DNA from: an uncultured Anaerolineales bacterium
Lineage (GTDB): Bacteria; Chloroflexota; Anaerolineae; Anaerolineales; RBG-16-64-43
NCBI GenBank assembly: GCA_964521085.1
Contig: CAZFPL010000001.1
Span: forward strand, 35,469-99,468
Direction of reading: 5' to 3'
Length of the DNA stretch: 64,000 nucleotides
The stretch's first letter is position 1; every line of letters starts with the position of its first letter. The position numbers and the translations under genes were made by a program. This document shows, piece after piece, positions 23,729 to 45,177 of this stretch. The notes under the pieces were generated by a model that worked only from the letters and a program-made list of their open reading frames with translations, was not told the origin of the DNA and did not search any database.

Positions 23729-26134
23729 ATGAAAATCCATTATTTCAATCCCATGAAGTGGATCATCCCTTTTATTTTCCTGACGCTCGCCGGTTGCGGG
23801 GGGCCCGGACCGGCCGACGGAACAGCGGCCGCCGGCAGGGAGACTTTGTCCGAGGTTTCATCCTGGACCGCTTTGCCGGACAACACGCAAACACCGATGC
23901 CTTCTTCGACGTCTACGCGTACGCCGGCTTCAAGTCTGTCGGCAATCGCGGCCGCCGCGGGCCGGAGACATACCTGCGTGATCGTTGACAAGAACAACGT
24001 TAAATGCTGGGGAGAGAACGAGGATGGACAGCTCGGCGACGGGACGACCGTTCAGAAAAGTTTTGCCGTGGATGTCCTCGGCCTGGACGAAGGCATAACC
24101 GAAATCGCGGCCGGGTATAACCATACCTGCGCCCTGACCGGCTCCGGCGGGGTGCGATGCTGGGGGAATAACGCCTTCGGCCAATTGGGCGATGACACCC
24201 AGACCAGCCGCAGCAGGCCTGTGATGGTTCCGCTTCCGGGTTCCATAGTCGCTGTTTCCGCCGGAACCCTGCACTCGTGCGCTGCAACCCGCCGCGAGAT
24301 TTATTGTTGGGGCATCGTGGAATACCAATATCTCGAGGGCGAGGATGTGGTGGGCATCTCCTTCAAGCCCTACCGTGTCGATGTCGGCAATATCCCCGCC
24401 GATGAGCAGATCATTTCGATCGGATCCGGATTTGCGCATGATTGCGTTCTTACGGATCAGGGAAGCGTGTATTGCTGGGGGCGGAACGACATCGGCCAGC
24501 TCGGCCGGGGGCCGGCCACCTACGCCGATAATGTTCCGGATAGGGTCCTTGGAATTACCGGCCCCGTTGTCAAACTGGCGGTGGGAGGGTCGCATACCTG
24601 CGTGATCCAGGATGACCATATGGTGGCTTGTTGGGGATACAACAAGTACGGCCAACTGGGTAGTTCCCATACCGGCGAGGAAGGTCAGCCGGCGAAAATT
24701 GCGGGCTTGAAATATGTGACCGATCTCTCGGCGGGTGCATACCATACCTGCGCAATCCTTTCCGACGGCGGGGCCAAGTGCTGGGGCGATAACCGGTATC
24801 ACCAGCTGGGCGGAGAGCAGACGGCTTTGGGAAACATCGCGGACATTGCCGGCAAATTCCGGTCGATTGCTGCGGGCGGTTCTCATACCTGCGCCCTGAC
24901 CGAGAACGGCGGGGTTGAGTGCTGGGGGAACAATAAGTTCGGGCAGTTGGGGGAGAGCGCCATTTCCACCAAAGGTACGCCTGTGCCGACTCGGACCAAA
25001 ACAATCATCCCGCCAAAGACCCCTGATGCGCCGACGCCCACTCCGGAACCATCCAACTTCGTAGTCTCCATCGCCGCCGGACGCTATCATACGTGTGTGG
25101 TCACCGAATCGGGCGGCGTGAAATGCTGGGGCAAGAACGAACATGGAGAATTGGGCAACGGAACCAATAGCGACAGCAGCGTCCCGGTGGATGTGGTCGG
25201 GTTGCAGCGTGGGGTGCGGGCGGTGGTTGCGGGTTGGGGGCACACCTGCGCGCTGATAGATTCCGGCGGGGTGAAGTGCTGGGGGTATAACGATAACGGC
25301 GAACTGGGCAACGCTTTTAACAGCAACAGCAACATCCCGGTGGATGTCAGCGGGCTGGACGGCGGCGTGATCTCCATCGATGCGGCCGACGATCACACCT
25401 GCGTGGTGCTTGCCGGCGGTAATGTGGGATGCTGGGGCTACAACGAATACGGCCAGTTGGGGGATGGCGCGACCGTCGATCGAAATGTGCCGGTGTATGT
25501 CCCCGGTCAGCCGGTCGGGGCGCATGCGGTCGCGGCCGGCTGGGGGCACACTTGTGCGCTGCTTGCGACCGGTGGAGTCAAGTGCTGGGGAAATAACGAA
25601 CTTGGCCAGTTGGGGGATGGATCCGACGCGGAGAACCGGACGAAGCCGGTTTATGTGTCCGGCATGACCTACGATGTATCCGCGATCACCGCCGACGGCG
25701 GCCACACCTGCGCGCTGAAGACAAACGGGATTGTGATGTGCTGGGGGGCCAACAAGTACGGCCAGCTCGGCGACGGGACCGGCGAGATCCGCAAGGTCCC
25801 CGTTGCCGTGGCCGGATTGAATATGAAAGTCTGGAAACTCGTCGCCGGATGGAACACCACCTGCGCGATAGGAGAGGCGGGAGAGCTGGCCTGCTGGGGA
25901 TGGAATTACTACGGCCAGCTGGGGAACGGAATCCGTACGACCAGCGCCCGGCCGGTGGTGGCGGGCGAAATGATGTACGGGGTGGTTGATGCCGCGCTCG
26001 GTTGGGGGCATACCTGTGTGATCACCGACACGGGCGGCGTGCAATGCTTCGGATTGAACGAGTTCGGCCAGCTCGGCGACGGCACAACCGAAAACGGGTA
26101 TCTGCCCTTGGATGTGATCGGTTTAAGCGGTTGA
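23729..26134 (+). CDS. RCC1-repeat lipoprotein, two propellers
   Basis: Lipobox LAGC, Thr/Pro stalk, about 14 CWG.N..GQLG repeats with a Thr/Pro linker between propellers. Confidence 0.9.
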   Translation: MKIHYFNPMKWIIPFIFLTLAGCGGPGPADGTAAAGRETLSEVSSWTALPDNTQTPMPSSTSTRTPASSLSAIAAAAGRRHTCVIVDKNNVKCWGENEDGQLGDGTTVQKSFAVDVLGLDEGITEIAAGYNHTCALTGSGGVRCWGNNAFGQLGDDTQTSRSRPVMVPLPGSIVAVSAGTLHSCAATRREIYCWGIVEYQYLEGEDVVGISFKPYRVDVGNIPADEQIISIGSGFAHDCVLTDQGSVYCWGRNDIGQLGRGPATYADNVPDRVLGITGPVVKLAVGGSHTCVIQDDHMVACWGYNKYGQLGSSHTGEEGQPAKIAGLKYVTDLSAGAYHTCAILSDGGAKCWGDNRYHQLGGEQTALGNIADIAGKFRSIAAGGSHTCALTENGGVECWGNNKFGQLGESAISTKGTPVPTRTKTIIPPKTPDAPTPTPEPSNFVVSIAAGRYHTCVVTESGGVKCWGKNEHGELGNGTNSDSSVPVDVVGLQRGVRAVVAGWGHTCALIDSGGVKCWGYNDNGELGNAFNSNSNIPVDVSGLDGGVISIDAADDHTCVVLAGGNVGCWGYNEYGQLGDGATVDRNVPVYVPGQPVGAHAVAAGWGHTCALLATGGVKCWGNNELGQLGDGSDAENRTKPVYVSGMTYDVSAITADGGHTCALKTNGIVMCWGANKYGQLGDGTGEIRKVPVAVAGLNMKVWKLVAGWNTTCAIGEAGELACWGWNYYGQLGNGIRTTSARPVVAGEMMYGVVDAALGWGHTCVITDTGGVQCFGLNEFGQLGDGTTENGYLPLDVIGLSG

Positions 26135-26250: not shown

Positions 26251-26364
26251 AATTCGATCAAGCGCGCCATGATTCTTCCAAGGCGCATTTTTTCGTAGGC
26301 CGCGCGAAGGGCGATCAACGGCTGTTCGCCGATTTCCGTCGCTTCACACGATGGAATATCCCGT

Positions 26365-26403
26365 GTTTCAATTCTGTAACATGCCGGTAACAGTAAAGTT
26401 GCA
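26365..26403 (+). promoter_or_regulatory. 11-bp-period direct-repeat box
   Basis: GTTTCA, GTAACA, GTAACA, GTTGCA at 26365/26376/26387/26398. Confidence 0.65.
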
Positions 26404-26473
26404 GAAGCCGCATAAAATTATTATCGGGAATAGGGATATTTGTCACGATATCCCACAAGGAAGGACGAAATCC

Positions 26474-27814
26474 ATGCGCCAAAATTTTTCTTTCATCAAA
26501 TGGGTCGCGGGCGGATTGGTTCTGAGTGCCTGCACGTTTTCCCTCTCGCTGGTGCCCAATCCGACGGCGACCCCCATCGTGCCTACGCCCACTCGGACAA
26601 TGACGAGCACGGTTACGGCGACGGCATCGCCCACCGCCGTTCCGCCCACGCCGACCCCCACCGGTACCAAGACGCCCGTCACCCCCGTCACGCTGGATCC
26701 GGCGGCCGCGCCGAAAGGGGATATTGCCTTCGAGAAGGGAACCTACAACGAGGACGGCGTGTATTTGGTCACGCCGAAGATCAAAGGCCGTGGAACACTC
26801 GATTTTCTGTACGGGCAGGTGTCCGATCCCGAGTGGTCGCCGGACGGAAAACGGATTGCTTTGAGATTGTACCGGTGGAGGGAGATTTCGGAGACTTCTT
26901 CCTACTGGGTGGATGATATCGCCGTGATCAACCGCGATGGGAGCGGTTTTAAAAAGTTGACCAAGATGGAGAAAGGCGACCGGTTGTGGGAATTCACCTG
27001 GTCGCCCGACGGCCGCTGGATCGCCGTGGTCCGCTCCAAGATGGACCCCAATTACATCTTCTACGATCACGCCGTATGGATCATCAAGACCGACGGGTCC
27101 GGCATGATGAAAAAGATCGGAGATACCACAAGCAGCGATGCCCATGTGGATTGGTTCCCGGACAGCAAGCGTCTGGCCTATCTGGATCCGGGGGGACTGC
27201 TGGTGATTGCCTCCATCGACACCGGCGAGACGATAACGATGGATTTAGTCGATTCGCCGGAGGAGAAGTATCGGATCTTCGATGTCTCGGCGGATGGAAA
27301 ATCAGTGGCGTATCTGGAATATTCCGACAAGGAATATTCCCTTCGCATGGTCAACCTGGAGGGCTTCCAAGAGGGCGACGAGCCTGAGGAAGTGATCCTG
27401 TTCGAAGGCACGATGGAAGATATTAAATTAATTATTCCGATGGCGGGTGACCTTTCCTTGTCGCCGGACGGCGGGTGAGAGATTTATTTCCTCACCGAAC
27501 CCGGAAAAGCCACCCTCCAGCTTTTTTCCATCGGGAGTTCCGAACCCGTCACCCTTGCGGAGCTTACTGATTACTCTCCCGATTTGGAGCGGTTGGATCC
27601 CCAAATCGATAGGCTCATCCCCGCGTCTCCGAATTGGAAACCCGGCTGGTCGTCGGACGGCGAGTGGATCGTGTATGCGACGGCCATCTCGGGGCAGGGT
27701 TGGGAAAACGGGAATATCTACATCGTCAACGCCGATCAGGCCTTGGCCGGCACGATCGAACCCATCCTGGTGGCGGAGCACGGAAGGCGGCCGGATTGGC
27801 AGCCGGCGGTATGA
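26474..27814 (+). pseudogene. TolB/PD40-like propeller lipoprotein interrupted by an in-frame TGA at 27476-27478
   Basis: Lipobox LSAC and WSPDG repeats; the frame stays open after the TGA and aligns colinearly with paralogue 27948..29294 to its C-terminus (PDWQP). Confidence 0.8.
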
Positions 27815-27839
27815 AAGACGCAGCGGCCGAATTTACTGT

Positions 27840-27878
27840 GTATCCATTCCGTAACAGGCTCGTAACAGCCAAGTTGCA
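27840..27878 (+). promoter_or_regulatory. 11-bp-period direct-repeat box (duplicated promoter)
   Basis: GTATCC, GTAACA, GTAACA, GTTGCA at 27840/27851/27862/27873; downstream ~70 bp resembles 26400-26476. Confidence 0.65.
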
Positions 27879-27947
27879 GAAGTTGCATAAAATTATTCTC
27901 GGGAACCAGGATAACATTCACGAGATACTCAACAAAGGATGAAAACC

Positions 27948-29294
27948 ATGCGCAAACCTTTTCTCTTTTTCACATGGCTGGCGGGCGGATTGGCCCTCGG
28001 GGCCTGCACTTTTTCGCTCTCGCTGGTGCCCGACCCGACTTCGACTCCCGTCGTGCCAACCATCACCCTGACCCGGACGATCACCCTTACGGCGGCGGAT
28101 TCGCCTACCGCCATGCCGCCCACGCTGACCCCTACCAACAGCCGGGTGCCTGCCACTCCTATCAGCTTGGATCCGGATGCCGTGCCGAAGGGATCGATCG
28201 CCTACGATCGGGGAACTTATGGGGAGGATGGAATTTATCTGGCGGCCGCCAATGCGGCCAAGCCGGGTGCGCTGAGCTATCTGACCCGCGCCGGATTCGA
28301 ACCCGTTTGGTCGCCCGATGGGAAATCGATAGCTGTCCATGTGGTCCGGTTCGAGAACTCACCGTCCGGCTCCATGACCTGGGTGGATGATATCGGCGTG
28401 ATCAACAGCGATGGAAGCGGCTTTAAAAAACTGACCCAGATGCAGTCCGGCGACCGGTTGTGGGAGTTTGCTTGGTCGCCCGACGGCCGGTGGATCGCCG
28501 TGGTCCGATGCAAGATGGAAGCCGTCCCCAACGGCCTCAGTTACTCGGACGCGGCGGTGTATGTCCTCAAGTCCGACGGTTCCGATACGATGAAGCGCAT
28601 CGCCGATGTCAGGGATTTCGAATCCCACATCGAATGGTTCCCGGACAGCGAGTATTTGGGTTTCCTGGATCCGGGCGGCCTGTTCACCATCGCGTCCATC
28701 TCGACGGGGGAACGGATTACGATGGGCGATACGCAGGCGCCGGATTTCAGCCATCAGACTTTTTCGATTTCACCGGATGGAAATAACCTGTTCTATGTGA
28801 CCTACACTTCCACGGATTTCACCCTGAAAAAAGCCCGCCTCGAAGGACTCCAGAAGGGGGAAACGTGGCAAGAGACGGTTCTATATACCGGACCGTTGGA
28901 GTCAATCGGCATTTTCACCCCGATGGCGGGCGATCTTGAATCATCGCCGGACGGCACCCGCCTGCTTTTTGTCCAAAGCGAGGGCGGCAAGGCGGTGTTG
29001 CGGCTTTTACCCATCGGGAGTGATGATCCCGTCACTCTTGCGGAGCTTTCGGATTGTTCCGATGCGGCCAAAGAGCTCGATCCCAGCGTACGTTATGCGT
29101 GCTGGTCTCCCAACTGGAAACCCGGTTGGTCGTCGGACAGCCAATGGATCATGTATGCGACAGCCGTTTGCGGATCGGGCTGGGAAAGTGGGAATATCTA
29201 CATCCTCAATTCGGCGAAGGTCCTAAGCGGCTCGATCTCTCCGGTCCTGCAGGCGAAAGGCGCCAGATACCCGGATTGGCAGCCGGTGGGATGA
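27948..29294 (+). CDS. TolB/PD40-like beta-propeller lipoprotein
   Basis: Lipobox LGAC, Thr/Pro stalk, repeated (P/A)xWSPDG and C-terminal PDWQP. Confidence 0.88.
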   Translation: MRKPFLFFTWLAGGLALGACTFSLSLVPDPTSTPVVPTITLTRTITLTAADSPTAMPPTLTPTNSRVPATPISLDPDAVPKGSIAYDRGTYGEDGIYLAAANAAKPGALSYLTRAGFEPVWSPDGKSIAVHVVRFENSPSGSMTWVDDIGVINSDGSGFKKLTQMQSGDRLWEFAWSPDGRWIAVVRCKMEAVPNGLSYSDAAVYVLKSDGSDTMKRIADVRDFESHIEWFPDSEYLGFLDPGGLFTIASISTGERITMGDTQAPDFSHQTFSISPDGNNLFYVTYTSTDFTLKKARLEGLQKGETWQETVLYTGPLESIGIFTPMAGDLESSPDGTRLLFVQSEGGKAVLRLLPIGSDDPVTLAELSDCSDAAKELDPSVRYACWSPNWKPGWSSDSQWIMYATAVCGSGWESGNIYILNSAKVLSGSISPVLQAKGARYPDWQPVG

Positions 29295-29446: not shown

Positions 29447-29534
29447 TTTGCCTCCCGGTTCAATCCGGTCCGGGCGTGTCGAAATTGACACATCCCCGTA
29501 GCAATCCTGTTACGCGATTCTGATAGAATCCCCG

Positions 29535-30701
29535 TTGATGAGTGAAAACAGGGTTATTAAGCGGATATCGGGTGTCGGAATGCGGCTGCGAGGGTTGCTG
29601 CGGCCGCGCAACCTTCTATTGGCAATGCCTGTGGTTCTGGCCCTCGTGTGCATCGGGGTGTATGCCGGGATCCGATCCTACGCGCCCGCCGCCCCGCACG
29701 AGGAGCCGACGGCGAGCTTGACGCCTTTCCAGCCCGCAACCGACACGCCCGACTCGCCCGGACCTTCTCCCACCCGGGGACCGACCGTAACCGTTCCCAC
29801 TCCGCTGCCCCTCGCCACGCCGACCCCCTCGGGCATCGCTCCGCCCTGGGCTCCCTATGCCGGTCCGATCCATCCGGCTTCCACGCAAATCCCCACCCCC
29901 GCCGAAGAGATCGATCCGGGCGGGGATTCACTCACCCTTGCCCTGCTCGGGATCGATAAAACCGAGACCAAAGGCGCCTACCGCACCGATGCGATCATGA
30001 TCCTCTACCTCGACCGGGCGCGCAAAACCGTCGCGGTGATTTCCTTTCCGCGCGATTTGTATGTATACATCCCCGCCTACGGCATGCAGCGCATCAACAT
30101 CGCATTTCAGGAGGGCAAGGCCCTCAACTATCCAGGCGGAAGCTTCGCGCTGTTCCGGGATACGATGCTATACAATTTCGGCCTGCGGATCGATCATTAC
30201 GCGCTGATGAACTTCCAGGGTTTCAAGGATATGATCGACCGGCTCGACGGGATCGACGTGGAGGTCGCCAGGACTCTCACCGACTATCGGATGGGATATG
30301 GCAACTACACGATGGAGGCTGGGGAGCGGCACATGGATGGATCGACGGCGTTGTGGTACGTGCGCGCGCGGCAAACCACCAGCGATTTCGACCGCACGCG
30401 CCGCCAGCAGGAGGTGATCATGGCGATCGCGCAGCGCTTGATGGATATGCGCGCGATTCCCAACCTGCCGGGCTTTTTCAGGATTTTCATGGAGTATTTC
30501 GAAAGCGACCTGACCCTCGACATCATCACCCCCTTTGCGGATATGGCGGGCTCCGTGTCGCTTTCCTCGCTCCGCCGCTACCGGGTCACCTTCCCGGAAG
30601 GCTGCAGCAATTGGACGACCCCCGAAGGGGGAATGGTCCTCCTTCCGAAATACGATGCGATTCACGCGATGCTGGAAGAGGCTATTAACCCGCCCGAATG
30701 A
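29535..30701 (+). CDS. LCP (LytR-CpsA-Psr) family glycopolymer transferase
   Basis: N-terminal TM helix; LLGID, RTDAIM, SFPRDLYV, RIN, YVRAR, SDFDRTRRQQ. Confidence 0.92.
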   Translation: MMSENRVIKRISGVGMRLRGLLRPRNLLLAMPVVLALVCIGVYAGIRSYAPAAPHEEPTASLTPFQPATDTPDSPGPSPTRGPTVTVPTPLPLATPTPSGIAPPWAPYAGPIHPASTQIPTPAEEIDPGGDSLTLALLGIDKTETKGAYRTDAIMILYLDRARKTVAVISFPRDLYVYIPAYGMQRINIAFQEGKALNYPGGSFALFRDTMLYNFGLRIDHYALMNFQGFKDMIDRLDGIDVEVARTLTDYRMGYGNYTMEAGERHMDGSTALWYVRARQTTSDFDRTRRQQEVIMAIAQRLMDMRAIPNLPGFFRIFMEYFESDLTLDIITPFADMAGSVSLSSLRRYRVTFPEGCSNWTTPEGGMVLLPKYDAIHAMLEEAINPPE

Positions 30702-30745
30702 CAAAAACCGATGAGGACCGCGTGCGTTCCCTGAGGTGGGATTTC

Positions 30746-32056
30746 ATGGTTAAGAATTTTTCCACCGCCATGAGCGTGGTATTTCTCCTTTCCGGCTGCG
30801 GCACGCTGAAGATCAACATCGATTACCAGAACACCCCGGTTCCCGCGAGTTCGGAATCCCGACCGGATTTTGCGGAGACGCTTGACGCGATTTCCACGTG
30901 GACCTCGACCCCCTCGGGGTCTCCCGCGCTCTCGGAAACTCCGACGGGGATTATTCCTTCAGCCGTGAAGAATGACGTCGTTGCTGTGGCGGCAAGCCGG
31001 AATCACACCTGCGCGGTGACGAACGCCGGCAGGGTGAAGTGCTGGGGCAACAACGAGCACGGCCAACTGGGAAACGGCAGCATGGTCAATAGCAACATTC
31101 CGGTCGACGTGATCGGATTGACGGACGCGAAGGCGATCACGGCCGGATGGGGGCACGTTTGCGCGCTTACCGCCGGCGGCGGGGTGAAATGCTGGGGATA
31201 CAATGCCAACGGCGAATTGGGCAACGGTAAAAACGCGGACAGCAGCAGTCCGGTGGATGTCCAGGGGCTGGCTTCGGGAATAGTCGCCATCGATGCAGGC
31301 GACGATCATACCTGCGCGGTGACCAACTCCAACAGACTGAAGTGTTGGGGAAAGAACGCTTTCGGCCAATTGGGCGACTGGACGAAAATCAACCGCAGCG
31401 TGCCGGTCGAATCGCCTTTTTTTGGGGGCGGGGTGGCGGACGTTTCGGCGGGATGGGGTCACACATGCGTCCAGACAGCCGAAGGCTGGGCGAAGTGCTG
31501 GGGGAACAACGCATACGGACAGATGGGTTTCGGCAAGCTGACGGATATCCACCTTCCTGCGGAAGATGTGGTCAACCTGAACGGGAGGGTGCTCGCAGTC
31601 ACGGCGGATGGGAGCCAGACCTGCGCGCTCACCGCCGGAGGCGGAGCACAATGCTGGGGGAACAACCGCTACGGCCAATTGGGGGACGGAACGACCCAGA
31701 AGCAGTATGAACCGGTCCAAGTGACGGGATTGACCTCGGGCGTTGGAAAAATCGAAGCCGGTTGGAATCATACTTGTGCGGTGACCAGCGGGGGCGAGAT
31801 GAAGTGCTGGGGATGGAACTTCTACGGCCAACTCGGCGACGGGACGACGGTCAACCAGAACGTGCCGGCGCGCGTGGAGTATCTGACGAACGGGGTGAAA
31901 GAAATCGCCCTGGGCTGGGGGCATACCTGCATGGTGACCGAACTCGGCGGGGTGAAATGCTGGGGCTTGAACGGATCCGGCCAACTCGGCGACGGCACCT
32001 GGGCTGACAGCATGGTCCCGCTCACGGTCATCGGCCTCGGATCGGACGTCCGGTGA
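30746..32056 (+). CDS. RCC1-repeat lipoprotein, one propeller
   Basis: Lipobox LSGC followed by GTLKINIDY; 7 RCC1-like repeats. Confidence 0.9.
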   Translation: MVKNFSTAMSVVFLLSGCGTLKINIDYQNTPVPASSESRPDFAETLDAISTWTSTPSGSPALSETPTGIIPSAVKNDVVAVAASRNHTCAVTNAGRVKCWGNNEHGQLGNGSMVNSNIPVDVIGLTDAKAITAGWGHVCALTAGGGVKCWGYNANGELGNGKNADSSSPVDVQGLASGIVAIDAGDDHTCAVTNSNRLKCWGKNAFGQLGDWTKINRSVPVESPFFGGGVADVSAGWGHTCVQTAEGWAKCWGNNAYGQMGFGKLTDIHLPAEDVVNLNGRVLAVTADGSQTCALTAGGGAQCWGNNRYGQLGDGTTQKQYEPVQVTGLTSGVGKIEAGWNHTCAVTSGGEMKCWGWNFYGQLGDGTTVNQNVPARVEYLTNGVKEIALGWGHTCMVTELGGVKCWGLNGSGQLGDGTWADSMVPLTVIGLGSDVR

Positions 32057-34549: not shown

Positions 34550-34619
34550 GGATCCGCGTTGGATCGCCTCCTGGGCTTTAATCGTTATCCTGACACGGTT
34601 TCGCTCGATGAGGATGCCC

Positions 34620-36339: not shown

Positions 36340-37019
36340 ATGCTGCGCCGATTGACATTTACCCTTGGTTTGCTTTTATTCCTTGCTGGATGCGGCACGG
36401 TGAAAATTGACCTGGATTCCCAATTGACCCTTTCGCATTCCAAGCCGAGTTCCACCCCCGCCGTCTCGAGCCCATCCGTGATTACCGACATGTTGACGTC
36501 AACATTTTCCCAGACTTTGTTCCCGACACTCCTGCGACGTATTCTCCGCCGATAGCGCCGTCCGATACGGCAACACCTTCCCCTTCAATCACCTCCTCGC
36601 CGTCAAATACGGCAACCACTGTCCCATCGAGGACCTCCACGCGCACCCGAACCGACGCGCCGCCCGAAAAGGTGCAGACGCTGACCGACACCCCTGCGCC
36701 GACGGACACTCTTGCAATAGCAGATACCCAGACCACAACTCCTATTATTTTGGAACCCCAATCACCGACCGCCACATGTACCCGGACAGAAACGATGACG
36801 CGAACTGGAACGCGTACACCGACCGAAACGCGTACATCGACAATGACGGGAACATCGGATACGCCAACACGTACCCTAACCACAACGCGTACACCAACAC
36901 GGACTTCGACCGAAACCACAGAAGAGACCGTGACCCCTGCACCGACACGATCGAAAACGCCCATAACTCCGATTTCGTGCGGTTGCCAATGGCAAAACGC
37001 ATACCTTCATTCTCGATAA
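36340..37019 (+). pseudogene. Thr-rich lipoprotein split by a -1 frameshift; no propeller domain
   Basis: Lipobox LAGC-GTVKIDLD in one frame stops at 36555; the Thr/Pro-rich continuation PDTPATYSPP...TRTPTRT runs in another frame to 37019. Confidence 0.65.
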
Positions 37020-37224
37020 AAATTTTTAACCTGTCATCGTATGGGGCATAAACGCAAGTATGGGGTAATCGGTACCAATGTAGAAGTTGGAGATTTTCCG
37101 AAGCAAATCAGGTCGGTTTTGGAAGATAAGAATAATTTATCGGGTCCACTGTCATTAAGGGCGAGTCGGCTCCCTGGCGCATGAGCCCGGTCTCCCCATG
37201 AAAATCCCTGGGGTAGCGGTTTTT

Positions 37225-38172
37225 TTATTCCCCTTGTTTCGTCTTCTGAAGAATGTGCATCGATACCGGCAGTGTGACCGCGAACACGGTACCCCGCGCG
37301 CCGTCCCGCCGGCTGCGGACCGTCACTGTCCCCTCATGCCGCTCCACCACGCGCCGGACCAGCGCCAGCCCGAGCCCGCTGCCTTCGTATCCGCGCGCGT
37401 TCGAGCCGCGGTAGAGTTCTTCGAACAGGCGCGGGATTTCCTCCGCTGGAATCCCCGGACCGGTGTCGGCGATTTCCACCTGCACATGGCGGGCTTGTTC
37501 CATCGCCCGCACCTCCACCGTATCCTGCTTGCCGGTGTACTTCATCGCGTTCTCGATCAGGTTGAAAAACGCCAGGCTGAGCAGGTCGCGGTCGCCGATG
37601 ATTTCCGGCAGCGGCCAGGGGACGCTGGGAACCACCAGGCGCAGATCCCTCCCGCTTCCCGAGGGGTGCGCCCGCACGGCGTCTACGGTTTCCTGCAGCA
37701 ATTGGCCGAGGTTGACTTTGTCATATTCCAGCGCGATTTCTTCCAAATCCGCAAGCTTTCGCAATCCGGCGGTGAGTCGGGTCAGACGCTCCACCTGGTG
37801 CTGGATATCGGGAATGGCCGAAGGCGTGGCACCGGATGCGCCGGCGCCTTCCAAATTGGCCAACGCCGCCCGGATGCCCGTCAACGGATTCTTTAATTCG
37901 TGATCCAGCCGGCGCAGGAAGCGCCGCTGAGCCTCGGCCTGTTTCTTCCGCTCGCGGGAAAGGCTGAGTTCGGATCGGGAGGCGTTCCGATGCCGGATCA
38001 GGACGATCGAAACCCACACGACGCTGATGAGAATGCCGCTGAAGAACGCCAGCAGGCCGAAATCGATCTTGATCACGAGCAGGGGGAGCGGTCGAAGCGT
38101 CTGTTGCAGGACGGTCATGATCGCCAGCCCGATTGCCGCCGGCACGAGAGCGATTGCGACGCGCAGTTTCAT
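37225..38172 (-). CDS. Sensor histidine kinase (2 TM helices, HisKA + HATPase_c)
   Basis: DHELKNPLT H-box, NLIENAMKY, DTGPGI, GSGLGL. Confidence 0.93.
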   Translation of the reverse strand: MKLRVAIALVPAAIGLAIMTVLQQTLRPLPLLVIKIDFGLLAFFSGILISVVWVSIVLIRHRNASRSELSLSRERKKQAEAQRRFLRRLDHELKNPLTGIRAALANLEGAGASGATPSAIPDIQHQVERLTRLTAGLRKLADLEEIALEYDKVNLGQLLQETVDAVRAHPSGSGRDLRLVVPSVPWPLPEIIGDRDLLSLAFFNLIENAMKYTGKQDTVEVRAMEQARHVQVEIADTGPGIPAEEIPRLFEELYRGSNARGYEGSGLGLALVRRVVERHEGTVTVRSRRDGARGTVFAVTLPVSMHILQKTKQGE

Positions 38173-38888
38173 TGCTCGCCTTCCACCGGAGCGCGGAACC
38201 GGTATCCTTCGCCGGTGACGGTTTCGATGAACTGCGGTTCCTCGGCTTCATCCCCCAGCGCGCGGCGCAGCTCGGCGATGCGGGTGTCCACCGCGCGCGT
38301 CCCGGCGGGGTAATCCCATCCCCAGACCGCATCCAGCAGCCGTTCGCGCGTGATCAACTCGTCCGGATGAGTCATCAGGTATTCCAGAAGCGAAAGCGCT
38401 TTGGGCGTCAGGGGCAGGATGTTCCCGCCCAGCGTCACCCGCCGCGCGCGCCGGTCAAGGACCAAACCGGCGGAGGTGATCTTCCAGGCGGAGGAAAGCG
38501 AGACCGGCGAGCCTTGCGCGCGCCGCAGAACCGCCCGGACGCGGGCCAGCAGTTCGCGGGGATCGAACGGCTTGTTAAGGTAATCGTCCGCCCCTTCCTC
38601 GAGGGCCATCGCGCGCTCTCCGGCTTCTCCCACCTGGGTCAGCAGGATGACCGGCAGGTGGTTGCCCTGGGAACGCAGGGTGCGGAGCACCGCCCGGCCG
38701 TCCATTTCCGGCATGAGTACGTCCAGGATGACCAGGTCGGGAGAATCTTTTACCACGCCCTCCAGCGCTGCTTTGCCGTTGGCCGCGCATTGCACGCTGT
38801 ATCCCGCGCGTTCCAAAAACGCGCTCAGGTGCTCCGTGATCGAAGGTTCGTCGTCGACCAGAAGGATTTTAGCAATCGGTTGGGACAT
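38169..38888 (-). CDS. OmpR/PhoB family response regulator
   Basis: LLVDDE, ILDVLMP, GADDYLNKPF, winged-helix ERLLDAVWG..IETVTGEGYRF. Confidence 0.95.
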   Translation of the reverse strand: MSQPIAKILLVDDEPSITEHLSAFLERAGYSVQCAANGKAALEGVVKDSPDLVILDVLMPEMDGRAVLRTLRSQGNHLPVILLTQVGEAGERAMALEEGADDYLNKPFDPRELLARVRAVLRRAQGSPVSLSSAWKITSAGLVLDRRARRVTLGGNILPLTPKALSLLEYLMTHPDELITRERLLDAVWGWDYPAGTRAVDTRIAELRRALGDEAEEPQFIETVTGEGYRFRAPVEGEQ

Positions 38889-39203
38889 AATTCGTTTGCC
38901 CTTGTGAATGCCGCAGACGGATGAGGTATATGATACTGTGTTTTTCCCCGAAGCGGTACTGCGATGCATGGGTCGAATTCCAGCCGGTGTCCGCTGCAAT
39001 TCGTGCAGCCGGACCGTGAAATTCTCGTGACGATGGCTGCCATCCTATCCGGGATGCGAATTTAAGCGCATGGAAAAGCGCCTGGGGGAAAAATGAAATC
39101 TTGGTTTACAATATACTGCGCCTTGGAGATCGGGCATCCCATAGGCGGTTCAGAGCCGGGAAAGCGCATCGAATACATCATGCTGTATCCTGCAGGAGGA
39201 AGA

Positions 39204-40328
39204 ATGCACAGTAAGTCTGTCAGTCTTATCGCGGCATCCGTGATTCTTTTTATTTTTGCATCCTCATGCAAACCCAAGGTTCCCGTCTCGGAGCCGCTTG
39301 CGGTTTCCAGGATCGCGGCCGGCGGGAACCAAACGTGCATAGTGGATAAGGGGAAAGCGAAATGCTGGGGGGAAAACGACGGCGGGCAGTTGGGAGAAGG
39401 GACGTTCGAGAATAGAAACACGCCGGTCGATGTGACGGTCCTGGCGGACGAAATTTCCTTTATCTCGGTGGGATACAAGCACACCTGCGTGTTGACCAAA
39501 AACGGCGACGTGATGTGCTGGGGAGGCGGTTGGACCGGCCGCTTGGAAGGCGGAACGGATGGAGGATATCGGGCGGTTGCCGCGGGTGGTTTCCACACCT
39601 GCCTGGTGACTCGCGCCGGAGGTGCGCAGTGCTGGGGTGGAAACGCCCTTTCCGGTATGGGAAACGATACGGAGGGAGATCCCGGCACGCCCGCCGATGT
39701 TACCGGATTGACCGACGGGATCCAGGGAATAAGCGCGGGGGTGGAGTTCTCCTGCGCAATCCACAACGGGGGCGCGATATGTTGGGGATTGAACGACGCC
39801 GGCCAATTGGGTGACGGAACCTTCACCAGTTCTTTGGATCCAAGGGAAGTTCTCGGATTGACGTCCGGGGTTAAAGCCATCGTTGCGGGAGTGTTCCATA
39901 CCTGCGCGCTGACGGCGGGGGGAGAGGTGTGGTGTTGGGGAGAGAATTTATCGGGAGAACTGGGTGACGGCTCCTATCAAAGCAGCCCGGTCCCGGTGAA
40001 AGTGGGCGGTTTGGAGGCAGGAATCCAAGCGGTTGTCGTCGGGGGCAGTCATACCTGCGTGTTAACCAAAGCGGGCGGTGTGAAGTGCTGGGGAGGGAAT
40101 GCCGGCGGCCAATTGGGAGATGGCACGACGACCGATCGGAATGTTCCCGCGGATGTCAGCGGGTTGACCAGCGGTGTGGTTGCCATCGCGGCGGGAGGAA
40201 GCCACACTTGCGCGATGATGAGTGATGGTTCGGTGAAATGCTGGGGGCAGAACGAAGAAGGCCAGTTGGGGAACGGCACCAATACAAGCAGCAACACGCC
40301 GGTAAACGTTACCTTCCCGGCGGCTTAG
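39204..40328 (+). CDS. RCC1-repeat lipoprotein, one propeller
   Basis: GGAGG SD; lipobox ASSC; 7 repeats, one shortened. Confidence 0.88.
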   Translation: MHSKSVSLIAASVILFIFASSCKPKVPVSEPLAVSRIAAGGNQTCIVDKGKAKCWGENDGGQLGEGTFENRNTPVDVTVLADEISFISVGYKHTCVLTKNGDVMCWGGGWTGRLEGGTDGGYRAVAAGGFHTCLVTRAGGAQCWGGNALSGMGNDTEGDPGTPADVTGLTDGIQGISAGVEFSCAIHNGGAICWGLNDAGQLGDGTFTSSLDPREVLGLTSGVKAIVAGVFHTCALTAGGEVWCWGENLSGELGDGSYQSSPVPVKVGGLEAGIQAVVVGGSHTCVLTKAGGVKCWGGNAGGQLGDGTTTDRNVPADVSGLTSGVVAIAAGGSHTCAMMSDGSVKCWGQNEEGQLGNGTNTSSNTPVNVTFPAA

Positions 40329-41599
40329 GGGAAAGTCGGAAACGATCCCTCGCCGGCGCCGGCGGAAATCAAGATCGCATCATCCTGTCCGGCGCCGGCG
40401 CTTTGCGTGTTGCCGGCGATATATACCCGGTCTCGGAACAGGGCAATCCCGTGGGCGCCTTCGTTTTCCGGGCCGCCCCACATCCGGGACCAAATCAGAT
40501 TGCCGTCGCGGTCATACCGCAGGAGTACGAAATCCATTCCGCCCCCGCCGCCGTAGCTGTCGGAAGCGCCGGCGATGAAAATGTCCCCCGACGGGCCGAT
40601 CGCAACCGCTCGCGCATCCTCACTTCCCTTTCCTCCCCACAACTGTTCCCAAATCAGTTTCAGGTTTTTATCCCACTTCCTGAGAAAAATCTGCCCGCCG
40701 TTGCCCCGGTCGACCGTCAACCCGACGGTGAACAGGTATGTTCCGTCGCTGGTCATCCCCAGTGCGTCCGTGCCGATCGGACCGTCCCAGACGGTATGCG
40801 AAAGGTATTCGCCCGTTTGCTTCGAGAAACGGGCAAGCAAACCCTGTCCGCCCAGGAGATAATTTTCTCCGTCGTACCGTCCGGCGACATAAATGGCATC
40901 GGCATCCACCACCATCTGTCCATCCGCCTGGTCCCATCCGCCTCCGCCCCAGGTGTTCGCCCAGATTAAATTCCCCTGCCGATCCAATTTCAGGACGGCG
41001 AGATCGTTCCCGGTTGTTTCTCCGGTTGTCCAACCGGAGAGATATAGATAATCTCCATCGGCGACCAGTCCGTCCACTTCTTCATAGCCGAATCCCTGGC
41101 TCCAGGTGAATTCCCATGCCGCGCTGCCGTCCTCGGTATTTAGCGCCAACACTGCCATGTCCGCTTCCATCAGGTTGACGGCCGAGGTGTAGGTGAGTCC
41201 GCCGACGTAGGCGTAGGCTCCGGCGACGGTTACGATAAATGCTTTCTCCATAAACTTTCCACCCCAACGCGTCTGCCAGAGTTCGGTTCCATCCGGGGCG
41301 AATTTGTAGATCACCATATCGGCGAACGGTTCTTTGACCGCCTGTTGAAATGAAGCGAAGTAGATGTTTCCGGCGCGATCGACATCCACTCCCCAGCCCT
41401 GATCCAGCTTGGATCCGCCGCGGAGGACGAACCAGGGGGTAAACGAATCGCCGACGGGGGATTGGTTTGCAGTCGATATCGAGGAGGCGGAAAACAGACT
41501 GGGCGTGATTGGACGCGCCGGTGAGGCGATACAGCCGAAGATCATCAGCTGCATGACGGAGGCCAAGAAGACGATTTCGGGAAGCGGTTTCTTCTTCAT
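40325..41599 (-). CDS. Beta-propeller (SBBP-like) lipoprotein
   Basis: Lipobox IFGC; repeats of K(F/L)D..GNLIW...WGG...(D/E).A..(I/V). Confidence 0.75.
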   Translation of the reverse strand: MKKKPLPEIVFLASVMQLMIFGCIASPARPITPSLFSASSISTANQSPVGDSFTPWFVLRGGSKLDQGWGVDVDRAGNIYFASFQQAVKEPFADMVIYKFAPDGTELWQTRWGGKFMEKAFIVTVAGAYAYVGGLTYTSAVNLMEADMAVLALNTEDGSAAWEFTWSQGFGYEEVDGLVADGDYLYLSGWTTGETTGNDLAVLKLDRQGNLIWANTWGGGGWDQADGQMVVDADAIYVAGRYDGENYLLGGQGLLARFSKQTGEYLSHTVWDGPIGTDALGMTSDGTYLFTVGLTVDRGNGGQIFLRKWDKNLKLIWEQLWGGKGSEDARAVAIGPSGDIFIAGASDSYGGGGGMDFVLLRYDRDGNLIWSRMWGGPENEGAHGIALFRDRVYIAGNTQSAGAGQDDAILISAGAGEGSFPTFP

Positions 41600-41714: not shown

Positions 41715-42722
41715 TCAAGCGGTCGGTAAATACCGCTTGAATGCCTCCATCTGGTGTAAAACGAGCTCGGCTCCGATGGCCAGGCAGCCGACCGGTTCCT
41801 CGGCCAGGTAGGCCGGAATTCCGGTGACGTCGGTCAGGTAGCGGTCCATGCCGCGCAGCAGGGCTCCGCCGCCGCACAGCATGATGCCGCGGTCGATGAT
41901 GTCGGACGTCAATTCCGGGGGGGTATGTTCGAGGGTGGTGCGGACACAGCCGACAATCTCCTCCAGCGGTTCCTCGAACGCTTCCACCACATCCGCCGTG
42001 GAGATGCTGACCGTCCGGGGAAGATTGTTGACCTGATCCCGGCCCTGGATTTCAAGGCTTTCGTTCGGCTCGATGGGTGTGGCGGCGCCGATCCGCAGCT
42101 TGACTTCCTCCGCCACCATTTCGCTGATCACCACGCCGTATTTCCGGCGGACGTAGGCGGCCAGCAGTTCATCCAGCCTTCTCCCGCCCATGCGGACGGT
42201 GTTGGCCACCACCGGGCCGTTCATCGTGATCACCGATGCCTCGGCCACGCCCCCTCCCAGGTATACGACCATGTTGCCCGAGGGGGTGGAAATCGGCAGG
42301 CCGGCGCCGACCGCGGCGGCGAGAGTCCGCGTAACCAGGAATACTTCGCGGCAACCGGCGCGCAGAACCGCCTCGCTGGCGGCGCGGCGCTCCACGCTTG
42401 TGATCCCGTGCGGAATGGTCACCATCGCCCGCGGCTTGAAGAGGCTGATCGCACCGCACACTTTGCGGATGAACCAGGTTAGAAGCACCTGGGCGACTTC
42501 GAAATCGGCGATCGCACCGTATTGAAGCGGATGAACCACTTCATACCCTTCGGGCACCCGGCCGTACATGTGCCGGGCCTGCTCGCCCACTTCCACGACT
42601 TTCTGTTCATCCACGTCGATCACCACCATCGTCGGTTCGCTCAGGACGATCTGCCCGCCCTCGGCGATGATGGTGTTGACTGTGCCCAGGTCGATCCCCA
42701 GTTCTTTATAGAATAAAGCCAT
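41715..42722 (-). CDS. mreB: MreB/Mbl-like actin homologue with degenerate catalytic motifs
   Basis: GIDLGTVNT, IADFE, ITSVERRA, PPELTSDI, GGGALLRG; the usual EEP and DIGGGT motifs read TRT and YLGGGV. Confidence 0.88.
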   Translation of the reverse strand: MALFYKELGIDLGTVNTIIAEGGQIVLSEPTMVVIDVDEQKVVEVGEQARHMYGRVPEGYEVVHPLQYGAIADFEVAQVLLTWFIRKVCGAISLFKPRAMVTIPHGITSVERRAASEAVLRAGCREVFLVTRTLAAAVGAGLPISTPSGNMVVYLGGGVAEASVITMNGPVVANTVRMGGRRLDELLAAYVRRKYGVVISEMVAEEVKLRIGAATPIEPNESLEIQGRDQVNNLPRTVSISTADVVEAFEEPLEEIVGCVRTTLEHTPPELTSDIIDRGIMLCGGGALLRGMDRYLTDVTGIPAYLAEEPVGCLAIGAELVLHQMEAFKRYLPTA

Positions 42723-42858
42723 ATTGTGTCAGGTCACTCTCCCGGCAATAGTGCAGGTTTTTTCTTGGGTTCGGGGGGTAATTGTACCCTATTAGACCGG
42801 GGCGGTCTTAAGACTGTCTCGATCCGGCTTCGATTACAATTATGCTTCGGGAGTGGAA

Positions 42859-45177
42859 ATGTCCACGAAAAAGTTTTGGATCAGGTTGGTTCTCATCGCG
42901 TCTTTCGGGGCGTTCCTAGCTTCCTGCGGCTCCTCCGAAAAAGCCACGCTGACGGTTACTTCCGAAGTAAAAGCGTCGACGGCGACCATCCGGATCGCAT
43001 CCCCATCGCCGACGGTTCCTCCGTTGGAACGCAGCGCCGTACTTCCCCTGACACTGGGCGGAAACCACACCTGCGCGATGACCATCGGGGACGGGGTCGT
43101 GTGCTGGGGCAATAACCGGTACGGGCAATTGGGGAATGGAACGTTCCTCAACAGCAGTGTCCCGACGGAGGTCAGCCGGATGACCTCCGGTGTGATCGCG
43201 ATCGCGGCCGGTTGGGCGCATACCTGCGCGCTCCGAAGCAGCGGCGGATTGGAATGCTGGGGAACCAATACGAAGGGTCAATTGGGTGATTCCACCACCA
43301 CCGACAGCCGTTCGCCGGTGGCGATATTCGGACTCTCCGGAGGGGTGAAGTCTGTCACGGCGGGGCACCGCCATACCTGCGCGCTGATGGAAGGGGGCGG
43401 GGTGAAATGCTGGGGGGAGAACGCATCCGGCGGAGTGGGCGACGGGACAAGCATCAACCGCAGCGCCCCGGTGGATGTGCCGGGCATGACCGGCGGCGCG
43501 ACGGCGCTCGAGGCCGGCGCCGGCCACACCTGCGCTTTGATGGAAGGCGGCGCTGTGAAATGTTGGGGATGGAATGCCGGCGGTCAATTGGGGAATGGAA
43601 CCGTCACCGACAGCCGGCTTCCGGTGGATGTCGGCGGCCTCCCGGGACCTGCGCAGTCTATCGCGGCGGGCGATCAGCACACCTGCGCCCTGCTTGCGGA
43701 TGGATCGGTTGTATGCTGGGGCGCGAATGCCAGCGGTCAATTGGGAAACGGAACCCGAAACCGGAGCAGCACGCCTGTCCCGGTCGGCGGTTTGTCCGCC
43801 GCTTTGGAAATTGCCGCCGGCGGCGCGCATACCTGCGCACTTTTAACCGACGGGGAAGTGAAATGCTGGGGCGACGACCAATCCGGTCAGTTGGGCGACG
43901 GTGGCTACGATAATCGGAGCACTCCGGTGGCCGTCAGCGGGCTGACGGGCGAAGTCGATCATATCGCAGCGGGGTTCAGCCACACTTGCGCGAGCATGAT
44001 GGACCGGCGTATCCAATGCTGGGGATGGAATACCGAAGGCCAGCTGGGCGATGGAACGGTCAAAGGCCGCCGGATCCCCGGGGACGTGCTGGGATTCACC
44101 GGCGGGGCTGCAGTGATCTCCGTCGGGTGGTCGAACACCTGCGCGCTCCTCATGACAACCGGCGGGATTCGATGTTGGGGATTGAATGGAGGAGGCCAGC
44201 TGGGTGACGGGAAGTTTGCCGACAGCAGTTCCCCGGTGGGGGTGAGCGGGCTCGCTTCCGGGAGGATTTCCGTGGCGGTCGGCGGCGCCCACGTCTGCGC
44301 GCTTTCCGGAAGGGGCGGCGTGAAGTGCTGGGGACGCAACGACCGCGGCCAGCTCGGCAGCGGGACGAATGCGGATCAGAACACGCCGATCGACGTCGCT
44401 GGTTTGCCGGAAGAGGTCGTCGCGGTCGCGGCCGGGAAGGATCATACGTGCGCCCTTACGTTCCATGGCGGGGTGAAGTGCTGGGGGGCGAACGAGTTCG
44501 GCCAGCTGGGAAACGGAACCACGGCGGACAGCGCCAAACCGGTGGATGTCAGCGGACTCTCCGAAGGGATCAGCGCGATCGCCATGGGGGGCGGCCACAC
44601 CTGCGCGTTGACCAGGAACGGCGGAGTGAAGTGCTGGGGCTCGAACAAATACGGACAACTCGGCGACGGCACGCTGGAGAACCATTCTGCGCCGGTCGAC
44701 GTCAGCGGATTGACCGCCGATGTCAATTCCGTTTCGGCGGGCGGATTCCATACCTGCGCGATGGTCTCCGGGGTGACTTTGAAATGCTGGGGGTGGAATG
44801 CGTACGGCCAGCTGGGCGACAGCACCGCCACCGACCGCACCATGCCGGCGAACGTCATGTGGCTGGCGGGCACCCCCGCCCTTGTTTCAGCCGGGTACGA
44901 TTTCACCTGCGCCATCATGCGCTCCGGCAGCCTGCGCTGCTGGGGAAACAACGAGTTCGGCCAGCTTGGAGACGGGTCCACCACGACCCACCAGACGCCC
45001 GTGGATGTGCGGGGGCTCAAGTACAAGGTGATCTTCCTCGCGGCGGGATTTTATTCCACCTGCGCGGTCACGACCGACGGGCAATCGAAATGCTGGGGAA
45101 ACAACATCTACGGCCAACTCGGCAACGGCGCCACTTCCAACAGCAACATGCCGGTGGATGTGATCGGTTTGGAGTGA
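42859..45177 (+). CDS. RCC1-repeat lipoprotein, two propellers
   Basis: Lipobox LASC; about 14 repeats. Confidence 0.9.
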   Translation: MSTKKFWIRLVLIASFGAFLASCGSSEKATLTVTSEVKASTATIRIASPSPTVPPLERSAVLPLTLGGNHTCAMTIGDGVVCWGNNRYGQLGNGTFLNSSVPTEVSRMTSGVIAIAAGWAHTCALRSSGGLECWGTNTKGQLGDSTTTDSRSPVAIFGLSGGVKSVTAGHRHTCALMEGGGVKCWGENASGGVGDGTSINRSAPVDVPGMTGGATALEAGAGHTCALMEGGAVKCWGWNAGGQLGNGTVTDSRLPVDVGGLPGPAQSIAAGDQHTCALLADGSVVCWGANASGQLGNGTRNRSSTPVPVGGLSAALEIAAGGAHTCALLTDGEVKCWGDDQSGQLGDGGYDNRSTPVAVSGLTGEVDHIAAGFSHTCASMMDRRIQCWGWNTEGQLGDGTVKGRRIPGDVLGFTGGAAVISVGWSNTCALLMTTGGIRCWGLNGGGQLGDGKFADSSSPVGVSGLASGRISVAVGGAHVCALSGRGGVKCWGRNDRGQLGSGTNADQNTPIDVAGLPEEVVAVAAGKDHTCALTFHGGVKCWGANEFGQLGNGTTADSAKPVDVSGLSEGISAIAMGGGHTCALTRNGGVKCWGSNKYGQLGDGTLENHSAPVDVSGLTADVNSVSAGGFHTCAMVSGVTLKCWGWNAYGQLGDSTATDRTMPANVMWLAGTPALVSAGYDFTCAIMRSGSLRCWGNNEFGQLGDGSTTTHQTPVDVRGLKYKVIFLAAGFYSTCAVTTDGQSKCWGNNIYGQLGNGATSNSNMPVDVIGLE

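Follow-up and report, generated by a model that had tools for sequence, protein, structure and literature searches.

We report that a 64-kb stretch of DNA from an uncultured Anaerolineales bacterium (GCA_964521085.1, contig CAZFPL010000001.1; hereafter the window) carries, at positions 23729-45177, an island of propeller lipoprotein genes that probably represents a lineage-specific, still-changing expansion of surface lipoproteins with RCC1-like domains (RLD), together with a few other propellers, within a variable stretch of an atpAGDC - mreB - ... - LCP backbone (LCP, LytR-CpsA-Psr transferase). The island is not a new conserved envelope machine; it shows a very common family in a new local arrangement, which we predict to be partly co-regulated. 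The DNA runs that contain the window sequence are all soil or freshwater-sediment metagenomes.

Domains were called with Pfam and NCBIfam models against their curated cut-offs, while lipoboxes and linkers were read directly from the translations. The features of the island, including a repeated promoter element referred to as class 1, are the following (aa, amino acids; nt, nucleotides; ORF, open reading frame):

23642..23697 (+), class-1 promoter of RCC1_A: four phased 11-bp GTNACA units, then TAAAAT
23729..26134 (+), RCC1_A: lipoprotein of 801 aa with LAGC lipobox, Thr/Pro/Ser stalk and two propellers (Pfam)
26364..26419 (+), class-1 promoter of PD40_1
26474..27805 (+; ORF listed at 26351-27478), PD40_1: propeller lipoprotein, lipobox LSAC, truncated or pseudogene
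27840..27894 (+), class-1 promoter of PD40_2, a duplicate of the PD40_1 promoter
27939..29294 (+), PD40_2: propeller lipoprotein, lipobox LGAC, Thr/Pro stalk (PD40 1.9e-13, 50 bits)
29476..29529 (+), class-1 promoter of the LCP operon, TAGAAT 8 nt before the ATG
29538..30701 (+; ORF listed from 29535), LCP transferase (PF03816 2e-37)
30746..32056 (+; ORF 30698-32056, 452 aa), RCC1_B: lipoprotein, one propeller, LSGC lipobox (Pfam)
32108..34549 (+; ORF 32078-34549, 823 aa), RCC1_C: lipoprotein, two propellers, LSGC lipobox (Pfam)
34608..36113 (+), RCC1_D: lipoprotein of 501 aa, one propeller, LAGC lipobox, C-terminal Thr/Pro/Ser tail
36340..37019 (+), relic lipoprotein gene, frame-broken, no propeller; degenerate class-1 element at 36140-36190
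37225..38172 (-), histidine kinase (HisKA + HATPase_c)
38169..38888 (-), OmpR-family response regulator (REC + Trans_reg_C); its stop overlaps the kinase start by 4 nt
39204..40328 (+; ORF 39093-40328, 411 aa), RCC1_E: one propeller, no stalk, ASSC lipobox, TTACAAT-type promoter
40325..41599 (-), SBBP-like propeller lipoprotein downstream of mreB, IFGC lipobox (LipL53-family SBBP 1.9e-12; CylK propeller 1.7e-10)
41715..42722 (-), MreB (PF06723, MreB_Mbl, 8e-108)
42859..45177 (+; ORF 42853-45177, 774 aa), RCC1_F: lipoprotein, two propellers, LASC lipobox, TTACAAT-type promoter

The propeller proteins and decaying genes

The six RCC1-repeat genes of the island lie far above the Pfam thresholds for RCC1, RCC1_2 and WD40_RLD (WD40_RLD scores of the RCC1 proteins in the window are 222-620 bits, cut-off 150, each protein having 5-14 repeats), and the blade signature CWGxNxxGQLG is spaced 50-52 aa (~51) in propellers of ~360 aa. 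Genes A to F hold 2+1+2+1+1+2 = 9 propellers, all seven-bladed, i.e. 14 blades in A, C and F and seven in B, D and E. Pfam and the blade spacing thus confirm the six RCC1-repeat lipoproteins with about nine seven-bladed propellers that had been proposed from the letters and translations of the window (the original prediction), the lipobox of RCC1_E being non-canonical. The original prediction had missed the truncation of PD40_1, the relic at 36340-37019 and a seventh RCC1 gene (15674-18073), which lies outside the island; all 64 RCC1 blade motifs within the window sit on the plus strand. The seventh gene and its neighbour are:

15171..15677 (+), DinB_2-family gene (PF12867 6e-07, above the cut-off), overlapping the RCC1 gene just downstream
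15674..18073 (+), RCC1_0: two propellers, signal peptide, C-terminal transmembrane anchor (WD40_RLD 1.8e-134)

An AlphaFold2 (AF2) model of RCC1_B, based on an alignment of the window's own paralogues, has 28 strands, a predicted local distance difference test score (pLDDT) of 94.6 and a predicted template-modelling score (pTM) of 0.91. Its best match is UVR8, with a template-modelling score (TM) of 0.95, a root mean square deviation of 1.4 Å and 32% identity, while HERC2, RPGR and RCC1 give TM values of 0.83-0.88. UVR8 is also found by sequence, at 2e-54 in a single-sequence search and at 2.4e-73 (250 bits) with a profile. On this model the propellers are canonical RLDs, with seven blades of four strands each, and they have the features of other bacterial RLD proteins (COG5184), namely seven blades of ~51 aa, the HTC...CWGxNxxGQLG signature and one or two propellers per protein. 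What sets the window apart from these is the presence of seven copies in 30 kb, several of them Pro/Thr-stalked lipoproteins, an LCP operon and a common operator. The RCC1/BLIP-II group is mostly bacterial among repetitive propellers (PMC9218822). The family is indeed very common, as the search with RCC1_B gave at least 7606 proteins at E≤1e-30 among 8000 candidates scored, often named "alpha-tubulin suppressor-like RCC1 family protein" and coming from Anaerolineae, Caldilineaceae, Oscillochloris, Solirubrobacterales and many metagenomes. We know of no function for the bacterial RLD subgroup to which the window proteins belong.

The eleven propeller units in the window share 37-62% protein identity, with A2, B, C1 and D forming the tightest group. 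At the DNA level the copies of the RCC1 genes are only 60-80% identical and long near-identical repeats are absent, so that the duplications are old; recent duplication or gene conversion is ruled out on the same grounds. An alignment of the window units shows two invariant Cys per blade (HTC ... CWG), 14 per propeller, and the A2/B/C1/D subfamily has Trp-bearing GWxHT motifs in blades 2, 4, 6 and 7. The corresponding motif in UVR8 is GWRHT. UVR8-like photoreception was considered and rejected, since the window motifs (GWGHT, GWNHT, GWAHV) never carry the Arg of UVR8. Plant UVR8 and the RLDs of animal HERC and RPGR proteins are the closest solved structures and share the same compact fold as RCC1_B, but the window proteins are predicted to be extracytoplasmic and lipid-anchored and have two invariant Cys per blade. 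We see no reason to suggest photoreception or guanine nucleotide exchange factor (GEF) activity, and a Ran-type partner would not be expected for an extracytoplasmic bacterial protein.

A signal peptide that ends in a canonical lipobox, [LVI][ASTVI][GAS]C, is present in RCC1_A, B, C, D and F, PD40_1, PD40_2 and the SBBP-like protein. RCC1_E, with its ASSC sequence, is the sole RCC1 gene without a stalk, and RCC1_0 is not a lipoprotein, its C-terminal membrane anchor taking the place of a lipobox. The linkers seen in the translations agree with the earlier description of mostly Thr/Pro stalks, RCC1_E being the departure from it. A post-Cys peptide, C-G-T-L-K-I-D-I-D-Y-G-x-T-P, is common to the RCC1 lipoproteins of the LCP operon and their relatives (window sites 30785-30840, 32147-32200, 34656-34710 and 36377-36433; also L006, L015, L022-L025 and L028, where L-numbers denote loci of relatives, see below); it is not present in RCC1_A, E and F.

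Also predicted to be propeller lipoproteins are the products of the two PD40 genes and the SBBP-like gene, which the original prediction described as two TolB-like and one SBBP-like proteins. The PD40 and SBBP repeats stand, but the name TolB does not: the TolB equivalog model TIGR02800 gives 36 bits against a cut-off of 343, the PD40 repeat type alone is shared, and no tol or pal genes were found near the PD40 genes. The AF2 model of PD40_2, made from three sequences, is all-beta and mediocre (pLDDT 65.8), and its best matches, S9-peptidase and TolB propellers, are indicative only. Repeat family and fold matches thus connect these proteins with the PD40 propellers of TolB and S9 peptidases; here, however, each propeller stands alone on a lipoprotein stalk, and no peptidase domain accompanies it. 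Similarly, the SBBP-like gene shares only the repeat type with the Leptospira LipL53-type SBBP lipoproteins (lipoprotein model 1.9e-12), and the LipL53 model gives 47 on its propeller against a cut-off of 400.

Two genes of the island show decay, PD40_1 as a nonsense allele and the gene at 36340-37019 as a relic. In PD40_1 the reading frame is interrupted by a TGA (27476-27478), beyond which homology to PD40_2 runs on in frame for 109 codons, to 27805; an independent sediment metagenome contig also carries this stop. The relic, in the gap between ORFs at 36114-37224, retains a signal peptide, a LAGC lipobox, a GTVKIDLD motif and a Thr/Pro stalk; its frame is broken and there is no propeller. 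It shares the post-lipobox motif C-G-T-[LV]-K-[IV]-[DN]-[ILV]-D with RCC1_B, C and D (repeat family D20).

A DinB_2-family gene lies just upstream of an RCC1 gene twice in the window (15171-15677 and 22706-23410), and the same adjacency was seen in a Caldilineaceae locus (L101, 9136-9651), which is the only one among ten external contexts. Elsewhere in the window, outside the island, there is another lipoprotein (LAGC) with a phosphodiester glycosidase (NAGPA) domain, at 5179-6087 and without a class-1 element.

Linkage in relatives and the housekeeping backbone

Relatives of MreB were collected from species-representative genomes, all of them Anaerolineales or Chloroflexota metagenome-assembled genomes (MAGs), and their loci fall into two tiers. 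In tier 2 MreB is 91-94% and the other proteins 65-90% identical to those of the window; in tier 3 MreB is ~70% identical. An RCC1_E-type gene adjoins mreB in all five tier-2 loci, the two-component system is present in four of five and RCC1_F in three of six. The SBBP-like gene was found in one of five (L004), whereas the PD40 genes were found in none and are known only from the species of the window. The content of L005 is mreB - RCC1 - LCP - N-acetyltransferase (NAT) - epimerase - DUF4434. Tier-3 loci read atp genes (atpAGDC in those long enough) - mreB - rex - obg - nadD - x - LCP - large kinase; in L007-L011, L013 and L014 mreB comes directly after atpC, and none of these loci has an RCC1 gene in ~20 kb.

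An alignment of LCP orthologues retrieved 80 metagenome loci. Where the LCP protein is at least 65% identical to that of the window, RCC1 sequence lies directly downstream in 11 of 11 loci; it is intact in nine, with only a short fragment in L026 and L030. Where LCP is at most 58% identical, RCC1 was found in 0 of 69. Genome and metagenome loci taken together, RCC1 follows LCP directly in 12/14 (≥65%) versus 0/76 (≤58%). The predicted LCP-RCC1 operon is hence a stable trait of one narrow clade (~9 lineages), and not of the order or the phylum. The number of propellers at the RCC1 position behind LCP varies between lineages, the protein there being 452 aa long in the window, 855 in L023, 846 in L015 and 487 in L006. 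In the metagenome loci L039, L042 and L044-46, mreB lies ~4-5 kb from LCP with no RCC1 gene, and in all there are 12 loci of more distant relatives in which mreB and LCP are linked without RCC1.

The reverse view was taken from ten RCC1 homologues on long contigs of other Chloroflexota or other MAGs, for each of which 4-10 kb was viewed on either side. Neither LCP nor MreB was found within these flanks in any of the ten. Their neighbours include an extracytoplasmic function (ECF) sigma pair, DinB_2, WYL and ArsR regulators, genes for recycling of N-acetylmuramic acid (MurNAc) with a PF00144 gene, two different response regulator-histidine kinase (RR-HK) pairs, a second RCC1 gene, a helicase and M42 peptidases. 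In one of these contexts (L104, Caldilineaceae, GCA_046328715.1) a two-propeller RCC1 gene stands among AnmK, NamZ, SIS/MurQ-like and amidohydrolase genes, beside a PF00144 beta-lactamase-family gene. With 0/76 distant LCP loci and 0/10 RCC1 homologues, the co-occurrence of RCC1, LCP and MreB across Chloroflexota that had been put forward as a check is not borne out.

The MreB of the window had been described as a variant or paralogue, and nothing we tested marks it as such. It passes NF010539 (378.6 bits, cut-off 293), falls slightly below the TIGR00904 cut-off (359.6 versus 365.75), covers positions 2-326 of the 327 in PF06723, and matches the solved MreB proteins of Caulobacter, Geobacillus and Thermotoga at 2e-85. 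One mreB locus was found per genome, by a pattern scan that could miss a divergent copy. By sequence and synteny, this MreB appears to be an ordinary housekeeping orthologue, because the backbone atp ... mreB ... LCP is shared with relatives. In the window, accessory genes fill the ~16.6 kb that separate atpC from mreB and the ~11 kb from mreB to LCP. The four atp genes (atpA, G, D and C, 63993-59369) share the strand of mreB:

57664..58938 (-), Tat-signal DUF362 lipoprotein with Thr/Pro stalk, next to atpC and ~14 kb away from the island
59369..63993 (-), atpA-atpG-atpD-atpC, 54-81% identical (tblastn) to the atp genes of L007/L010

At 8773-14795 (-) the window also carries a hydrogenase maturation cluster (hypE, hypD, hypF, hypB-like, hypA), which indicates a [NiFe]-hydrogenase in the organism. 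Rfam and tRNA scans of the window predicted no RNA genes.

Promoter elements, the LCP operon and the two-component system

Generic promoter and terminator consensus scans gave matches no more numerous than in shuffles, while comparison of upstream regions revealed the class-1 element, four phased 11-bp units before RCC1_A, PD40_1, PD40_2 and LCP. The unit consensus is yGTwaCA (G 19/20, T 17/20, C 18/20, A 16/20), and the last unit ends ~10 nt before a TAAAAT or TAGAAT box. When the window was searched for GTAACA-N5-GTAACA with at most two mismatches, there were 12 matches against 0.8 expected. The promoters of RCC1_A, PD40_1 and PD40_2 account for ten of these, and the relic and the DUF362 gene each have one upstream; a three-unit score picked out the RCC1_A, PD40_1, PD40_2, LCP and DUF362 promoters alone, with 0-2 matches in shuffles. 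Conservation is the better evidence for an operator, because the pattern came from the window sites. The element recurs before LCP in L006, L022-24 and L026-29 and before the RCC1_A orthologue in L023; the tier-3 LCP promoters lack it. The class-1-like element near the DUF362 gene (59184-59227, minus strand) lies ~230 nt upstream of it, and this lipoprotein gene is a possible member of the regulon.

The putative operators fit the WalR/PhoP-type pattern TGTWAH-N5-TGTWAH (PMC4168254) in the PD40, RCC1_A and LCP promoters, with 0-1 mismatch per pair. They share the direct hexamer repeats and the 11-bp periodicity of WalR, PhoP, MtrA and RpaB operators (TGTAAC-N5-GGTAAC is off by one base), and differ in having four phased units where WalR/PhoP-type operators have two. 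RCC1_E, RCC1_F and mreB instead have a conserved TTACAAT or TACAAT box (a TTACAAT-type -10 box) and no repeats, and a comparison of k-mers over all island promoters found none shared by those of RCC1_E, RCC1_F and the regulator. The island thus does not form a single regulon, and the shared element does not extend to mreB; of the earlier suggestion of a regulated system, what holds is that part of the island shares a response-regulator-type element.

The TAGAAT box lies exactly 8 nt before the LCP start codon in four lineages (the window, 29524-29540, L005, L006 and L022), which suggests that the LCP mRNA is probably leaderless. Downstream, the gaps between LCP, RCC1_B, C and D are ~44-60 nt. 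Shine-Dalgarno sequences set the likely starts of RCC1_B at 30746 and of RCC1_C at 32108; the former (GAGGTG) precedes an ATG 44 nt past the LCP stop. The 4-nt overlap of the listed LCP and RCC1_B reading frames was considered as translational coupling and rejected, since the Shine-Dalgarno sequence marks this later ATG.

The LCP transferase and the two-component system of the original prediction are both present (PF03816; HisKA + HATPase_c; REC + Trans_reg_C). LCP passes PF03816 (129 bits, cut-off 24.6) and TIGR00350 (107 bits, cut-off 62.3), has, as read from the sequence, an N-terminal membrane anchor followed by a Pro/Thr linker of ~95 aa, and several Arg residues are invariant in an alignment of five orthologues. 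Catalytic domain and anchor are those of the LCP family (TagT/U/V, Cps2A, Actinomyces oris LcpA), although it is no equivalog of a named LCP protein (TagU 76 bits, cut-off 441). In B. subtilis, the LCP enzymes TagTUV were found as MreB partners, and in A. oris LcpA glycosylates GspA, a genetically linked surface protein (PMC7831098). The linkage of the window LCP gene to mreB echoes the TagTUV-MreB association, and its linkage to a surface-protein gene echoes lcpA-gspA. The window LCP differs in its long Pro/Thr linker and in its downstream partners, which are lipoproteins rather than the sortase substrates of the known case. Pro/Thr linkers are present on LCP itself and on unrelated lipoproteins of the same organism; they therefore do not mark a specific LCP substrate. 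Adjoining LCP in the RCC1-bearing clade is a block of DUF4434, N-acylglucosamine 2-epimerase and aminoglycoside-N-acetyltransferase-family genes (18681-21803 in the window; also in L005, L022 and L029), which may represent a sugar-related neighbourhood.

In the histidine kinase, the helices read from the sequence are at residues ~4-22 and 36-59, with an outer loop of 13 aa and HisKA from residue 81. The predicted architecture is that of an intramembrane-sensing kinase (loop <25 aa, no other input domain), and it has neither the PAS nor the extracellular domains known from WalK and PhoR. The best NCBIfam matches of the response regulator are PhoB, RpaB, MtrA, OmpR and YycF, all below their cut-offs. 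A Pho regulon was considered and rejected: PhoB as the best match of the regulator and PhoR for the kinase are far below cut-off, the kinase has no PAS domain and there are no pst genes nearby.

Interpretation and alternative explanations

We consider an expansion of RLD surface lipoproteins inside a variable stretch of the backbone to be the probable explanation of the island. The proteins would be exported and tethered by a lipid to the cytoplasmic membrane, and extended linkers would place them in or above the wall, with the propellers acting as binding modules for glycan or protein ligands; divergence of the paralogues would widen the range of ligands, and duplication, divergence and loss would tune the repertoire. 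The left half of the island would consist of three or four transcription units (RCC1_A, PD40_1, PD40_2 and LCP with RCC1_B/C/D) sharing a four-repeat GTNACA operator ~10 nt upstream of the -10 box, a geometry that would suit an OmpR-family activator of the WalR/MtrA/PhoP/RpaB type. The nearby two-component system is the obvious candidate for this role and may respond to an envelope-related signal, while MreB would be merely a neighbouring housekeeping gene. Several points weigh against this interpretation. None of the RNA runs searched for the window sequence holds it, and we infer operons, co-regulation and surface exposure alike; the window statistics are partly circular, the operator having been defined from the window's own promoters, two of which (PD40_1 and PD40_2) are duplicates of each other; there is no class-1 operator before the response-regulator gene; we know of no ligand for a bacterial protein of exactly this type; and the stable LCP-RCC1 adjacency over ~9 lineages could reflect real functional coupling, in which case the cluster would be more than accretion.

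Such coupling is central to the idea of a dedicated envelope system, in which LCP would put a glycopolymer on the Thr/Pro stalks or the adjacent wall, the RCC1 proteins would form a coat and MreB would pattern its insertion. RCC1 lipoprotein genes directly after LCP in nearly all clade loci, one operator for LCP and stalked lipoprotein genes, the post-lipobox motif C-G-T-L-K-I-D-I-D-Y-G shared by the RCC1 paralogues of the LCP operon, and the precedents of LcpA-GspA glycosylation and the B. subtilis LCP-MreB association (PMC7831098) all speak for it. We nevertheless regard it as improbable, since the MreB-LCP linkage is older than the RCC1 genes and occurs without them in the 12 more distant loci, mreB is on a different promoter class, the ten RCC1 homologues elsewhere lack LCP and MreB neighbours, the content is highly variable and includes decaying copies, and the Pro/Thr linkers, also found on LCP and unrelated lipoproteins, are no specific-substrate mark. 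From the undescribed envelope system proposed originally, the predicted exported, tethered propellers and the LCP-RCC1 adjacency remain, whereas most components are unlinked in relatives. If, at the other extreme, unrelated accessory genes had merely gathered in a gap prone to recombination, sharing neither regulation nor function, and the promoter repeat were a remnant of duplication, one would expect content that varies among close relatives, pseudogenes and heterogeneous flanks, all of which are seen, and the PD40 promoters are clearly duplicates. The element is, however, kept in orthologous promoters at 65-80% protein identity, its distance to the -10 box is fixed in non-paralogous genes (RCC1_A, PD40 and LCP), and the RCC1 genes are all on one strand; we accordingly give this explanation little credence.

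Lipoprotein accessories of sensor systems have a precedent in LpqB of the MtrAB system. By analogy, the stalk-less RCC1_E might be an extracytoplasmic co-sensor of the kinase, with the regulator switching on the class-1 promoters. The short outer loop of the kinase (only ~13 aa), the lack of a stalk in RCC1_E alone, and the presence of an RCC1_E-type gene beside the two-component system wherever the latter was found (L003, L004, L006, L015 and L023) are consistent with this, as are external RCC1 genes beside an RR-HK pair (2/10) or an ECF sigma pair (1/10), and a regulator whose best matches include MtrA and YycF/WalR together with an operator resembling TGTWAH-N5-TGTWAH (PMC4168254). But RCC1_E-type genes persist by mreB and LCP in L005 and L020 without the two-component system, RCC1_E is divergent from the two-component system and not co-transcribed with it, the operator is absent at the regulator's own promoter, and the family matches of the regulator are all below cut-off; we think a co-sensor role unlikely. 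A bolder combination, which on our analysis is quite doubtful, is that in one clade the kinase with RCC1_E as sensor, via the GTNACA operator, switches on leaderless LCP and stalked propeller lipoproteins, LCP possibly modifying the stalks. If RCC1_E were a sensor of this kind, it would mean programmed remodelling of the surface coat in a monoderm Chloroflexota cell.

The original prediction cited BLIP-II as the known bacterial precedent, and on that analogy the propellers would be a set of inhibitors, similar to BLIP-II, directed at beta-lactamases or penicillin-binding proteins. BLIP-II of Streptomyces is a secreted bacterial protein of the same propeller superfamily, a profile search matches it at 1.4e-15 to 2.3e-13, and the Caldilineaceae homologue amid MurNAc-recycling genes has a PF00144 beta-lactamase-family neighbour. 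It is nevertheless a distant relative, in agreement with the description in PMC9218822 (53-60 bits versus 250 for UVR8): single-sequence phmmer gave no BLIP-II match at E≤0.001, BLIP-II is not in the top 50 fold matches, its chains of 273-287 aa for seven blades contrast with the four-strand blades of ~51 aa here, and the window proteins are membrane-tethered and often double propellers whereas BLIP-II is a small, soluble single propeller. We regard inhibition of this kind as very improbable.

Returning to the expansion of RLD lipoproteins as the preferred explanation, the locus clearly illustrates how surface proteins undergo birth-and-death evolution within a housekeeping backbone. The envelopes of Chloroflexota are still poorly understood, and bacterial RCC1-like propellers, for all their abundance, are functionally blank; here the locus offers a clade-restricted, predicted LCP-RCC1 operon and a concrete candidate operator common to stalked lipoprotein genes.

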